Positions 3,315 through 18,911 of a stretch of 64,000 nt of DNA are shown here, one piece after another (the stretch's first letter is position 1; every line of letters starts with the position of its first letter). Source of the stretch: Escherichia coli (GTDB lineage Bacteria > Pseudomonadota > Gammaproteobacteria > Enterobacterales > Enterobacteriaceae); NCBI RefSeq assembly GCF_001677475.2, contig NZ_CP015229.1; one strand, given 5' to 3'. Under the pieces are notes generated by a model, which saw only the letters and a program-made list of their open reading frames with translations, searched no databases and was not told the DNA's origin. The position numbers and the translations under genes were made by a program.

Positions 3315-5437
3315 TTTTCTGCGTCCTCTTGTTTTTTCTTAGCGTTTAACCATCGCTGTTTTTCTTCACGGCCAGGCAAAAGCAGAATATTACTGGATGA
3401 AGGAAGTACAGGTTCATTTTTTTCATTAGGCAGATTTGTACGCCCTAATAGGTCCAGTTCAGCTTTTCTGTTCCGCCTGATATCTTTACCATGCACCCGG
3501 CGGGGATCAGAAATATCGTTCAGGCGTTCAATACCTTGCCTGTTGATTTTATCCTTAACTTTACTATTGTTAAAAACATTCAGTGTGAATGCATTTATTT
3601 CTTTTTGCGTATCTACCCAGTCGGCCATAACATCTGTATCAAGATGAGCTTTACCTTTAAATACATCTCTTTTTTTGAGTAGATAATGCTTTCTGAAGAC
3701 ACTATTTTTATCGAATCTTACGTACAAATAATCTACGCAATTATCATCAATTCTTGCTTCACAGGAGGTTCGTCCGAATACTCTTGCTGCTGAAGCAATG
3801 TCAGGATCGCATTCATAAAATAAATTATTATACTGAATTCCACCGGCTGTAATATTTGCTGTCACGGGGATTAACAAACGAGCAATGACTTCATCTGCTG
3901 TAACGACTCTTCCGCTGAACCGTCCTTGCTTTACGCTAATCATCCAGCTGTTTTTTGGCGAAATAATGAGATCATGTTCAATCAACAATGGATTAATATA
4001 AGCCAACTCCTCATACGTTCTTTGATTATGTGCAAGGATTTCCCGAATCAGCACTGAGGTGACCTCCTGAATCGTTAAACAGGCTCTGGATTGCGGTGTT
4101 GGTTCTCCTTTAACAATTTTGCCTCTTCGCGTTGCTCCTGTAAGCTCATGAATAGCTTCATCATTTAAAATCCCGAAACAACGCTCAACAATACTCTTTC
4201 TGTCCCCTCTGCCAACCGGTGCAAACTCAAGTTTAGTCAGAGGAGTCATCTTATCTTGAGGTTTAAGACCAATCATCTCTCCATTATCGCACATAAGTGT
4301 TAATGGTATATGAGAACAAGGCCATTCATCTTCATTAATAGAAACACCAAATATTCTACAGTATTCTTTTTTTGGCATAAAGCAATTTGCCAACGCTTGC
4401 CGGGCCGCTCGCCAGGAAGCATGATACAAAGAAACATGAAGACCAACAATCATCCTTGAAGCACGATCCACTACTGTATAAATAGTTGGTCGGCCAATAA
4501 CTTTACGCCTGTTTAAGCTTGAAACAAGGTGCACATCAGCTACAGTTGAGTCTATTTCAAAAACATCACCCGGCAATACGGTCGTATTAGCGGCACTCCC
4601 CAGAAGGCCACGCATCTTGAGGGCTATTTCTTTTTTAGAGTTTTTCTTATTTATAGAGAACTCTTTTGAAAACAACTTTCTATTCCAGTAAGTAAATTGT
4701 TTTAAAGAAGGAATGTAGGGAGCCCTGTTTTCAGCGTTTGCTTTCTTTATTTCATCCTTGAAATATAATTCAATGTGTCTTACCAGCGTTTTCTTTATCG
4801 TTTCCCCATGAGTTTTGTAATGAAACCTAGTTAGGGACTTTTTGATGTTTTCAATATCCCCTTCATTAAGGATATAAACTTTCGAACGTATATTGGGTAA
4901 TACTCTGTTTTTCTTTGCATTCCCGAGCTTAACTTCATGTCTGATTCTACTCTTACCTGCAGCACCGCAGTTCGGGTATGCGGGTAGCAAAGCATATATA
5001 TCCTGTCCATGTTTCCAGTAAAGAGTTAGAAGCGTCCTGATTGTACGTTGTGGGATTTGTTTTTTTCTGGAGTACTCTGTTAACAAATGTGATTTTTTAT
5101 GAATCGCATAATCAAATACGAATATTTTATCCTCTACAAGTTCTTTAATAATCTTATAGTTTACATCCCGTCGCTTTCTGTCTTCATTATTTATTTTTCT
5201 CTCATCAATCAACATATATGATGGGGGTGTATATTTCTTATGGGTTATTCTTTGCGAGTCCACACCATATGTAAATTGTGAAAGTGAGAATGGAATTGGT
5301 TTACTCGTTCTTTCTTTTTTTATTTCAAATAAAATCAACAAATCGGTATCTCTGTCAAAATCCAGAACGCGATAAAGCCCATCAGATAGCACGTCACTGT
5401 CGTGAGATTGCCATACTGAATTTCTAATAATATCCAT
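3311..5437 (-). CDS. tnsB: Tn7-like transposase TnsB (DDE/RNase H-fold)
   Basis: 708 aa; core similar to Tn7 TnsB (IGRPTIYTVVDRASRMIVG vs IGRPTLYIVIDVFSRMITG); overlaps tnsA 3' end by 14 nt. Confidence 0.9.
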   Translation of the reverse strand: MDIIRNSVWQSHDSDVLSDGLYRVLDFDRDTDLLILFEIKKERTSKPIPFSLSQFTYGVDSQRITHKKYTPPSYMLIDERKINNEDRKRRDVNYKIIKELVEDKIFVFDYAIHKKSHLLTEYSRKKQIPQRTIRTLLTLYWKHGQDIYALLPAYPNCGAAGKSRIRHEVKLGNAKKNRVLPNIRSKVYILNEGDIENIKKSLTRFHYKTHGETIKKTLVRHIELYFKDEIKKANAENRAPYIPSLKQFTYWNRKLFSKEFSINKKNSKKEIALKMRGLLGSAANTTVLPGDVFEIDSTVADVHLVSSLNRRKVIGRPTIYTVVDRASRMIVGLHVSLYHASWRAARQALANCFMPKKEYCRIFGVSINEDEWPCSHIPLTLMCDNGEMIGLKPQDKMTPLTKLEFAPVGRGDRKSIVERCFGILNDEAIHELTGATRRGKIVKGEPTPQSRACLTIQEVTSVLIREILAHNQRTYEELAYINPLLIEHDLIISPKNSWMISVKQGRFSGRVVTADEVIARLLIPVTANITAGGIQYNNLFYECDPDIASAARVFGRTSCEARIDDNCVDYLYVRFDKNSVFRKHYLLKKRDVFKGKAHLDTDVMADWVDTQKEINAFTLNVFNNSKVKDKINRQGIERLNDISDPRRVHGKDIRRNRKAELDLLGRTNLPNEKNEPVLPSSSNILLLPGREEKQRWLNAKKKQEDAEK

Positions 5438-16324: not shown

Positions 16325-17677
16325 ATGACTAAACACTATGATTACATCGCCATCGGCGGCGGCAGCGGCGGTATCGCCTCCATCAACCGCGCGGCTATGT
16401 ACGGCCAGAAATGTGCGCTGATTGAAGCCAAAGAACTGGGCGGCACCTGCGTGAACGTCGGCTGCGTACCGAAGAAAGTGATGTGGCACGCGGCGCAAAT
16501 CCGTGAAGCGATCCACATGTACGGTCCGGATTATGGTTTCGATACCACTATCAATAAATTCAACTGGGAAACGTTGATCGCCAGCCGTACCGCCTATATC
16601 GACCGTATTCATACTTCCTATGAAAACGTGCTCGGTAAAAATAACGTTGATGTAATCAAAGGCTTTGCCCGCTTCGTTGATGCCAAAACGCTGGAAGTTA
16701 ACGGTGAAACCATCACGGCCGATCATATTCTGATCGCCACCGGCGGTCGTCCGAGCCACCCGGATATTCCAGGCGTGGAATACGGTATTGATTCTGATGG
16801 CTTCTTCGCCCTTCCTGCTTTGCCAGAGCGCGTAGCAGTTGTTGGCGCGGGTTACATCGCCGTTGAACTGGCGGGCGTGATTAACGGCCTCGGCGCGAAA
16901 ACGCATCTGTTTGTGCGTAAACATGCGCCGCTGCGCAGCTTCGACCCGATGATCTCTGAAACGCTGGTCGAAGTGATGAACGCCGAAGGCCCACAGTTAC
17001 ATACCAACGCCATCCCGAAAGCGGTAGTGAAAAATGCCGATGGCAGCCTGACGCTGGAGCTGGAAGATGGTCGCAGTGAAACGGTGGATTGCCTGATTTG
17101 GGCGATTGGTCGCGAGCCTGCCAATGACAACATCAACCTGGAAGCCGCTGGCGTTAAAACTAACGAAAAAGGCTATATCGTCGTCGATAAATATCAAAAT
17201 ACCAACGTTGAAGGTATCTACGCGGTGGGCGATAACACGGGGGCAGTGGAACTGACACCGGTAGCAGTTGCAGCGGGTCGCCGTCTCTCTGAACGCCTGT
17301 TTAATAACAAGCCGGATGAGCATCTGGATTACAGCAACATTCCGACCGTGGTCTTCAGCCATCCGCCGATTGGGACTGTTGGTTTAACGGAACCGCAGGC
17401 GCGCGAGCAGTACGGCGACGATCAGGTGAAAGTGTATAAATCCTCTTTCACCGCGATGTATACCGCAGTCACCACTCACCGCCAGCCGTGCCGCATGAAA
17501 CTGGTATGCGTTGGACCGGAAGAGAAGATTGTCGGAATTCACGGCATTGGTTTTGGTATGGATGAAATGTTGCAGGGCTTCGCGGTGGCGCTGAAGATGG
17601 GGGCGACCAAAAAAGACTTCGACAATACCGTCGCCATTCACCCGACGGCGGCAGAAGAGTTCGTGACCATGCGTTAA
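16325..17677 (+). CDS. gor: Glutathione reductase
   Basis: 450 aa; GGGSGG FAD motif; redox-active [13 protein letters not shown]. Confidence 0.95.
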
Positions 17678-17683
17678 ATGTTA

Positions 17684-17714
17684 AAGGGCTAAGAGTAGTG
17701 TGCTCTTAGCCCTT
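17684..17714. terminator. Hairpin after gor (shared terminator with the convergent dinQ transcript)
   Basis: AAGGGCTAAGAG...CTCTTAGCCCTT inverted repeat. Confidence 0.4.
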
Positions 17715-17730
17715 AATTACGTTTCCGCTA

Positions 17731-17814
17731 TCAGTTCAGAAGCTGAAGCAGAAAGCGGATCAGTTCCAGCAGCGCAATTAACGCCCCAAGAACGATGATT
17801 GCTTTATCAATCAC
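17731..17814 (-). CDS. dinQ: DinQ, 27-aa membrane toxin peptide (type I toxin-antitoxin)
   Basis: Minus-strand ORF GTG-IDKAIIVLGALIALLELIRFLLQLLN-TGA matches the recalled DinQ peptide; below the ORF-track size cutoff. Confidence 0.75.
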   Translation of the reverse strand: MIDKAIIVLGALIALLELIRFLLQLLN

Positions 17815-18005
17815 CCGTTTTCTCCATGCGATGGAGTGAGAATGCATCCGCTTACTCATCCACTGCCTGTCACGGCGCATGTCTCATTGTTAGATAAGAA
17901 CTCTCTCACTCCGGCCAGAGCATCAGTTAACGGCACCACCCGTACTTCTGACCAGGACTTTGAAAGCGTTTATGCGCATTACCAGAGTGAAAATGCCTCA
18001 GAGCT

Positions 18006-18025
18006 AACTGGATAATCATACAGTA
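18006..18025. promoter_or_regulatory. LexA (SOS) box upstream of dinQ
   Basis: aaCTGgataatcataCAGta fits CTG-N10-CAG, about 190 nt upstream of the dinQ ORF on its coding strand. Confidence 0.5.
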
Positions 18026-18088
18026 CATGCAGGTTATAAAACCAGCACGTCCTTGCAATAGTTTCAGTATGGTATTAGCATTGATGCG

Positions 18089-18171
18089 TTAGATGATGGC
18101 TATCTCACTCCAGCCAGAGCCACCAACTCTGGGCTGAAGAGTAAAAAAACCGACGCAAAGTCGGTTTTTTT
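18089..18171 (+). ncRNA. agrA: agrA-like antisense sRNA (repeat unit 2 of the gor-arsR region)
   Basis: ~80-nt unit ending in a CCGACGCAAAGTCGG hairpin plus T7 on the + strand; shares the TCTCACTCCAGCCAGAGCC motif with the dinQ leader. 5' end not determined. Confidence 0.4.
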
Positions 18172-18323
18172 ACGTCCGGATTCGGACAAAGCTTGGTACG
18201 GCAGCGACCCGATGAAAGTATATAAATCCTCTTTCACCAACATGTATAGCAAACTGTCCCTTCTCCAGCTGAAGAAATCGCTAATTCTTGCAATGTTAGC
18301 CACTGGCTAATAGTATTGAACTG

Positions 18324-18405
18324 TTAGATAAGAGCTCTCTCACTCCAGCCAGAGCCACCAACTCTGGGCTGGAAAGTAAAAAACCGACGCAAAGTCGGTT
18401 TTTTT
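18324..18405 (+). ncRNA. agrB: agrB-like antisense sRNA (repeat unit 3)
   Basis: Near-identical copy of the unit at 18089..18171 with the same intrinsic terminator. 5' end not determined. Confidence 0.4.
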
Positions 18406-18557
18406 ACGTCCTGATTCAGACCTCCTTTCAAATGAATAGCCAACTCAAAATTCACACCTATTACCTTCCTCTGCACATACACATTCGTTAAGTCATATAT
18501 GTTTTTGACTTATCCGCTTCGCAGAGAGACACTACCTGCAGCAATCAGGAGCGCAAT

Positions 18558-18911
18558 ATGTCATTTCTGTTACCCATCCAACTGTTCAAAATTCTTGCCG
18601 ATGAAACCCGTCTGGGCATCGTTTTACTGCTCAGCGAGCTGGGTGAGTTATGCGTCTGCGATCTCTGTACCGCCCTCGACCAGTCGCAGCCCAAGATATC
18701 CCGCCATCTGGCATTGCTGCGTGAAAGCGGGCTATTGCTGGACCGCAAGCAAGGTAAGTGGGTTCATTACCGCCTATCGCCGCATATTCCAGCATGGGCG
18801 GCGAAAATTATTGAGCAGGCCTGGCGATGTGAACAGGAAAAGGTTCAGGCGATTGTCCGCAACCTGGCCCGACAAAACTGTTCCGTAGACAGTAAGAACA
18901 TTTGCAGTTAA
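18558..18911 (+). CDS. arsR: Arsenical resistance operon repressor ArsR
   Basis: 117 aa; ELCVCDLC As(III)-binding motif in the HTH region. Confidence 0.95.
   Translation: MSFLLPIQLFKILADETRLGIVLLLSELGELCVCDLCTALDQSQPKISRHLALLRESGLLLDRKQGKWVHYRLSPHIPAWAAKIIEQAWRCEQEKVQAIVRNLARQNCSVDSKNICS

Follow-up and report, generated by a model that had tools for sequence, protein, structure and literature searches.

The dinQ-agrAB locus of Escherichia coli: a gor 3′ fragment that points to duplication and deletion, and a toxin leader that matches different Agr RNAs in different strains

The closest described relative of the locus considered here is dinQ/agrA/agrB of E. coli K-12 (Weel-Sneve et al. 2013, PMC3567139; Kristiansen et al. 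2016, PMC5066626; RF02891; NF041472). In that strain, dinQ is repressed by LexA, its primary transcript remains untranslated until the first 44 nt are removed, and the small RNA AgrB pairs with the dinQ leader and counteracts toxicity (PMC3567139, PMC5066626). DinQ is an inner-membrane peptide whose overexpression affects nucleoid compaction and conjugal recombination (PMC3567139, PMC5066626). The dinQ promoter carries a LexA operator with a heterology index of 4.83, and the dinQ terminator has been placed directly after the gor stop codon (PMC3567139). The transcripts, the toxicity of the peptide and its rescue by the sRNA have been shown experimentally in K-12 only, and the published K-12 account describes an “agrAB repeat” without mention of a duplication or of a gor fragment (PMC3567139).

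Related modules are also found on mobile elements. The dqlB/agrB addiction modules of plasmids and islands (pOXA-48, IncX3 pOXA-484; PMC12365149, PMC12317039) resemble the chromosomal locus in the divergent arrangement of the toxin and sRNA genes at a distance of about 200 nt, in the complementarity of the sRNA 5′ end to the toxin 5′ UTR, and in a conserved core, CTCACTCC.GCCAGAGC. They differ from it in having one agr gene and no gor fragment, and each has its own variable 5′ pairing block, which matches its own toxin leader (loci L028, L029 and L030, and L005 of Hafnia paralvei). The modules of IncX1, IncX3 and IncI plasmids and of the Hafnia island consist of one toxin and one agr gene each (PMC12317039, PMC12365149). 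Homologs of dinQ are present on 3148 PLSDB plasmids when searched at the DNA level in “distant” mode, which was used as tblastn of the 27-aa DinQ against plasmids gave 0 matches, probably through low-complexity filtering. Among other divergently encoded SOS or type I pairs, tisB/istR-1, zorO/orzO and shoB/ohsC likewise combine a small membrane toxin with a long structured 5′ UTR in need of processing, and the sRNA, trans-encoded yet adjacent, pairs well upstream of the ribosome-binding site (PMC8594479). This likeness is one of architecture, and among these systems only dinQ has two tandem antitoxin paralogs split by a fragment of a housekeeping gene.

The window analysed here, a stretch of 64,000 nt of E. 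coli DNA, contains such a locus in the 880-bp intergenic region (17678-18557) between gor, which codes for glutathione reductase (450 aa; 16325-17677, plus strand; from the ORF list and the annotation of the corresponding region in K-12 and RefSeq), and arsR, its right-hand flank (18558-18911, plus strand; from the ORF list and the annotation of aligned genomes). The first-pass annotation had recognised it as dinQ-agrAB, and comparison with K-12 bears this out: the order gor-dinQ-agrA-agrB-arsR is that of the aligned K-12 annotation, the mean column identity of the gor-arsR interval is about 98% in an alignment with K-12 and strain UTME-7, and the toxin and sRNAs match their NCBIfam and Rfam families. 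Of 5426 complete E. coli genomes searched with a 911-nt query, 5422 contain the region, the best identity being 98.1%. Besides the gene order, the window shares with K-12 an identical DinQ, the same LexA box and the same AgrB-type target block in the dinQ leader (AAGAACTCT), with about 98% identity outside the spacer between the agr genes. It differs from K-12 in that its gor fragment keeps CCTCTTTCACC, where K-12 has a 4-nt deletion, in that AgrB has one G-for-A change that yields a G-U pair, and in that AgrA has an extra A at its terminator and a few SNPs. The locus itself is already known and, taken alone, is nothing new, being a textbook SOS-regulated type I toxin-antitoxin system; its duplication history and the exchange of the matching sRNA are modest, testable additions. 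As a joint explanation of what follows, we consider it very probable that this is a chromosomal SOS-inducible type I toxin-antitoxin locus, dinQ/agrAB, that arose by duplication and deletion.

The toxin gene dinQ lies on the minus strand at 17731-17814, begins with GTG and codes for a 27-aa membrane peptide, VIDKAIIVLGALIALLELIRFLLQLLN. The reading frame, which had been noticed in the first pass, is intact and uninterrupted in the alignment; it differs from K-12 dinQ by one synonymous change, the two proteins being identical. The product is identical to WP_001295215.1 of the aligned genomes, where dinQ is annotated, and matches the NCBIfam equivalog NF041472 (toxin_DinQ) with 54 bits against a cut-off of 30, with no match in the copy of Pfam searched here. 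A hairpin terminator common to gor on the plus strand and dinQ on the minus strand occupies 17684-17714, with a 14-pair stem and a minus-strand fold of -21.3 kcal/mol (z -6.6). At the other end of the gene, a LexA-type box had been reported about 190 nt upstream and is found there, the start codon lying 194 nt downstream of it: the sequence CTGGATAATCATACAG (18008-18023) has the form CTG-N10-CAG, is identical to that of K-12 and forms an operator (18006-18025, minus strand) that overlaps the dinQ promoter. By this pattern, the sequence has what is expected of SOS control of dinQ through a predicted LexA operator. The agrA and divergent dinQ promoters are packed tightly back to back, and the agrA -35 hexamer, TTGCAA (18053-18058), is its own reverse complement and lies about 30 nt from the LexA box. 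An ORF of 57-59 aa runs antisense to the dinQ leader (17836-18015, plus strand; also in loci L012 and L021, 888-1061) and is listed as a “hypothetical protein” (WP_001296816.1, WP_001525864.1). Some RefSeq genomes annotate this ORF, a call that is probably spurious, while leaving agrA and agrB out.

Both sRNA genes are on the plus strand. A scan for consensus promoters and terminators missed those of the agr genes, and the agr elements were located instead by folding and with Rfam. The model RF02891 (AgrB) scores 92.7 bits at 18089-18173 (agrA) and 107 bits at 18324-18407 (agrB), against a gathering score of 40, and both positions agree with the K-12 annotation of the corresponding gene. In its fold, each of the two RNAs has a 5′ tail followed by a stem-loop and a terminator hairpin, the z-score being -5.6 for AgrA and -5.4 for AgrB. 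Read from the sequence, the agrA promoter (18053-18081) would consist of the above -35 element, a 17-nt spacer and the -10 element TAGCAT (18076-18081), and the agrB promoter (18288-18316) of TTGCAA (18288-18293), again a 17-nt spacer, and TAGTAT (18311-18316). The two promoters are homologous (p 0.003), and the homology of their regions reaches back to about 18030 and 18266. The agrA/agrB repeat, promoters included, is about 135 nt long (18052-18187 against 18287-18421; 84% identity, E 1e-32). The terminators had been described as identical, which is true of the stem-loop, CCGACGCAAAGTCGG, but not of the 5′ A-tract, where agrA has one extra A. It had also been remarked that the locus falls below the size cut-offs of ORF callers. 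This does not apply to dinQ, which is routinely called by PGAP, but agrA and agrB are indeed annotated in K-12 only, and pipelines outside K-12 still omit them.

A third copy of part of this repeat lies in the dinQ 5′ UTR and will be called U1 here. The first-pass annotation had proposed three units of about 80 nt; however, the stretch common to all three copies is only 32-34 nt long (17888-17921 in the dinQ 5′ UTR, 18087-18120 in agrA and 18322-18355 in agrB), and the flanks of the UTR copy are not significantly similar to those of the agr genes (p 0.19 to 0.99). The shared motif that it had quoted fits U1 and agrB, but the agrA copy, TTAGATGATGGCTATCTCACTCC, departs from it at 6 positions (79% identity). 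The U1 repeat was also considered as a decayed agr gene, promoter and sRNA, once encoded in cis. A BLAST alignment of 77 nt at 74% identity, which ran upstream into the agrB promoter, would fit such a gene, but the flanks without the core gave p 0.19 upstream and 0.94 downstream, and this candidate was rejected. As the flanks are not significant when tested alone, U1 is a target site of 32-34 nt rather than a third unit of about 80 nt.

The pairing of the sRNAs with this site is in agreement with such a role. The target site (17890-17921, minus strand), which is the “agrAB repeat” of the dinQ 5′ UTR and was delimited from the three-way repeat and from duplex energies, would form with AgrB 30 Watson-Crick pairs and one G-U pair, with one mismatch and an energy of -57.0 kcal/mol. 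AgrB shows, at its 5′ end, the complementarity of about 30 nt to the toxin 5′ UTR by which the family is recognised, and its duplex is the best one in this genome; AgrA leaves three mismatches and reaches -44.2 kcal/mol. Since the sequence is nearly identical to that of K-12 and the duplex between AgrB and U1 is this stable, we infer that the regulation described for K-12 also operates here. In such a scheme, dinQ would be transcribed from the minus strand under a LexA-repressed promoter, and its primary transcript would be translationally inert before processing of the 5′ end, after which the message would yield the 27-aa inner-membrane peptide. AgrB, presumably expressed constitutively from the plus strand, would use roughly its first 32 nt to pair with the dinQ 5′ UTR at 17890-17921 and so keep the toxin off, and AgrA would be a paralog whose pairing block has three mismatches in this genome.

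The variable part of the site is a 9-nt block after TTAGAT (Agr nt 7-15; 17896-17904 in U1, 18095-18103 in agrA and 18330-18338 in agrB), which differs between copies and between lineages and covaries between U1 and one of the Agr copies. In the window, as well as in strains UTME-7 and SC455, the block reads AAGAACTCT in U1, GATGGCTAT in agrA and AAGAGCTCT in agrB, and AgrB is the better match. The same sRNA is favoured in K-12 (U1 AAGAACTCT, agrA GATGGCTAT, agrB AAGAACTCT), in strain 4069 (U1 GTGGGCATT, agrA GATGGCATT, agrB GTGGGCATT) and in a genome labelled E. fergusonii (U1 GTGGGCAAT, agrA GATGGCTAT, agrB GTGGGCATT). By contrast, AgrA is the better match in E69 (U1 GACGACTAT, agrA GATGACTAT, agrB AAGAGCTCT), in strain 190, C2 and E2865 (U1 AATGGCATT, agrA AATGGCATT, agrB AAGAACTCT), in O157:H7 and O55:H7 (U1 AATGGTATT, agrA GATGGCATT, agrB GTGGGCATT) and in E. 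whittamii (U1 GACGACTAT, agrA GATGGCTAT, agrB GATGGCATT), where it leaves 1 non-pairing position against 2 for AgrB.

In every genome examined, one Agr copy matches its own U1. Across 21 Escherichia genomes (16 haplotypes), one copy always has 0-2 non-pairing positions; the best-pairing copy is AgrB in 6 of the two-copy haplotypes and AgrA in 4, and in the genomes with a single agr gene (among them ATCC 11775, PA45B, F11, ST70, E. albertii and E1V33) U1 pairs with the sole copy. Matching duplexes range from -50 to -62 kcal/mol and, in two-copy genomes with a clear best match, those of the other copy from -38 to -45 kcal/mol; E. whittamii is an exception, as both of its Agr copies pair about equally well (about -56 kcal/mol). 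When U1 was shuffled among the 16 haplotypes, the observed complementarity was reached in 0 of 10,000 trials, a figure that overstates independence, since the haplotypes are related by descent. The module-specific blocks of the plasmid systems fit the 9-nt block as the determinant of specificity.

To what extent each type of target is represented was estimated with a 91-nt U1 query in the 5426 complete E. coli genomes. About 1829 carry the K-12 target, about 2342 that of strain 190 or O157:H7 and about 441 that of the type strain; the total of about 4612 compares with about 4602 genomes that match the query over its full length. A longer query of 300 nt, comprising the target site and agrA, gave identity bands blurred by joined pieces, with at least 800 genomes at 99% identity or more to strain 190. 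The targets of strain 190, O157:H7 and the type strain match AgrA, or the only Agr copy, in 10 of 10 sampled genomes, and roughly 60% of the complete E. coli genomes have a target other than that of K-12. It is thus probably in only some 40% of E. coli that AgrB is the antitoxin, as assigned in K-12. We lean slightly towards a reading in which AgrA and AgrB are two antitoxins of alternative specificity, with the target in the dinQ 5′ UTR switching from one to the other, probably as the three repeats undergo gene conversion. If this is true, the rule that AgrB represses and AgrA does not would be limited to about 40% of strains, the spare Agr copy may be a reservoir of specificity and, more speculatively, it may protect against plasmid dqlB modules. 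In any case, the K-12 assignment should not be carried unchecked to O157:H7, phylogroup B2 or other lineages. The accessible parts of the literature on dinQ and agrA/agrB that deal with phylogroup or O157 do not describe this swap. In T1TAdb, the more stable of two predicted asRNAs was chosen (PMC8594479).

The spacer between agrA and agrB holds a second element with a counterpart nearby. Positions 18196-18248 match 17410-17462, in the 3′ coding region of gor, with 83% identity over 53 nt (E 1.2e-10 against the whole 64-kb window), and the match is unique within the 64 kb, the next best having E 0.7. The pseudo-copy of gor that had been reported at this place is therefore real, although the coordinates given for it were off by about 4-5 nt. 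In other alleles of this pseudo-gor, the homology extends over about 80 nt, up to about 17490 of gor in the K-12-type and E. whittamii alleles, so that the donor segment is taken as 17409-17490 and the pseudo-copy of the window-type allele, at the start of the second duplication copy, as 18196-18270 (both on the plus strand); its position is kept in other Escherichia species. The two alleles found in E. coli share only 67% similarity, although their flanks are nearly identical. The window-type allele is present in 810 complete E. coli genomes (at least 95% identity) and the K-12-type allele, with its 4-nt deletion, in 3029, the spacer being kept in 3841 of 5426 genomes. An ATG-initiated ORF of 32 aa (18212-18310, plus strand) runs across the pseudo-copy and opens with the Gor-derived residues KVYKSSFT.

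The boundaries of this fragment suggest how it arose. Pseudo-gor, from 18196, begins within 8 nt of the end of the agrA/agrB homology (18187), and the gor fragment and agrB follow each other in the same order and orientation as gor and agrA, that is, as two collinear segments of which the second starts where the first ends, with the gor′-agr order kept. Pseudo-gor is offset by 786 bp from its source in gor, and agrB by 235 bp from agrA, so that copy 2 corresponds to copy 1 minus about 551 bp, a length that accounts exactly for the remainder of gor′ together with the terminator, dinQ′, the UTR of dinQ′ and the LexA promoter. The same junction is found in sister species, and the module is absent from outgroups. 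The survey of species, which relied on one genome per species and on look-ups by Gor protein sequence, recovered the gor fragment at this junction in E. whittamii (76 nt, 82%), in the genome labelled E. fergusonii (96% identity to the window allele), in E. albertii, which has preserved the beginning of the fragment as well as roughly the final 30 nt of gor, stop codon included, and in the lineage SCPM-O-B-8794, where it is followed by a deletion from the agrB -35 region into arsB. In Salmonella and Citrobacter farmeri, gor is present, whereas dinQ, agr and pseudo-gor are all missing. Taken together, the abutting boundaries, the offsets and the common junction support the earlier suggestion that the locus grew by segmental duplication of the gor terminus.

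According to this model, gor would first have gained, on its downstream side, a module with one toxin and one sRNA, as in plasmids and Hafnia. Some 786 bp, beginning within the 3′ coding part of gor (about 17405) and ending shortly after the agr terminator (18187), would next have been duplicated in tandem. Copy 2 would afterwards have lost about 551 bp, namely what was left of gor′ along with the terminator, dinQ′, the dinQ′ UTR and the LexA promoter. What remained of copy 2 would be a gor fragment of about 75 nt fused to an agr promoter, the present agrB. As E. albertii retains both the start of the fragment and the end of gor with its stop codon, the original gor copy must have reached the gor end. 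Acquisition, tandem duplication and then loss of the second toxin, all before the Escherichia species diverged, are the most economical sequence of events. The gor fragment would thus record the birth of a second antitoxin gene without a toxin, through duplication followed by loss of the toxin copy, and would date the duplication to before the Escherichia species split. Downstream of any pseudo-gor, no significant similarity to a second dinQ or terminator was detected beyond the gor pieces and the agr promoter, and the deletion step is consequently inferred rather than seen; none of the loci sampled contains an intact 786-bp tandem repeat. Moreover, Escherichia sp. E1V33 has one agr gene and no pseudo-gor, for which the duplication model needs a secondary loss, and the 67% similarity of the two E. 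coli alleles makes the dating harder and would allow for gene conversion or introgression.

Three other explanations of the gor-like patch have to be weighed against these observations. The similarity to gor might be due to chance or convergence and be silent on the history of the locus, a reading encouraged by the shortness of the patch (53 nt at 83% in the window) and by the strong difference between the two E. coli alleles. Nevertheless, the E value holds against the whole window, far from that of the next best match, and different species retain different collinear parts of one gor segment at the same junction; the comparative data have effectively refuted this possibility, to which we give practically no credence. 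Hardly more credible, and still very improbable, is that the patch has been kept for a function, either as the 32-aa ORF at 18212-18310 or as a regulatory element for agrB. An ATG-initiated ORF does span it in the window and the spacer between the agr genes persists in most genomes, but the 4-nt deletion in the commoner K-12-type allele breaks the frame, the alleles have diverged to 67% between flanks that have stayed nearly identical, and the spacer has been wholly lost in many E. coli lineages by recombination between agrA and agrB. The ORF has no match in Pfam and, as it is broken in the K-12-type allele, it is probably an accident of the pseudo-copy and not a gene.

The third explanation we regard as unlikely, though less so than the other two. 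It holds that pseudo-gor is the original 3′ end of gor, displaced by a mobile dinQ-agr block that carried its own gor 3′ end and entered by a Campbell-type single crossover within gor, with agrB arising later by a separate duplication. Modules of the dinQ type are indeed mobile, as indicated by their plasmid homologs and by the Hafnia copy, which has a recombinase gene as its neighbour; the module is absent at gor in Salmonella and Citrobacter, and the pseudo-copy of E. albertii retains the gor stop codon and is then followed by unrelated DNA. However, such a displacement requires a second, independent event for agrB and does not predict the coincidence between the end of the agrA/agrB homology and the start of the gor fragment. 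Additionally, the sequence after the E. albertii pseudo-stop is not similar to the regions downstream of gor in Salmonella (p 0.79) or Citrobacter (p 0.42), and none of the plasmid modules examined contains a gor fragment. Because no informative sequence survives after this pseudo-stop, E. albertii does not separate displacement from tandem duplication.

Apart from the duplication and deletion that we favour, several later rearrangements have been observed at the locus. In E. albertii (L003, 4123-5217), the DNA after pseudo-gor is unrelated and has a 100-aa ORF (4631-4933); as neither agrB nor ars genes follow, other DNA has taken the place of the right-hand side of the locus in this species. 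Many E. coli strains, for instance PA45B (L010), the type strain ATCC 11775 (L017), F11 (L022) and those of loci L018 and L020, have a single hybrid agr gene, with an agrA-like 5′ end and the downstream flank of agrB, which derives from recombination between agrA and agrB and removes pseudo-gor. In such genomes, arsR and arsB have often been lost as well, so that arsC adjoins the locus. Finally, in E. coli D8 (L014, 929-1010), recombination between the UTR repeat and an agr gene has deleted the dinQ promoter and the LexA box, leaving the dinQ leader fused to the agr body and dinQ with no obvious promoter; about 259 genomes with 73-74% query coverage were grouped with this recombinant.
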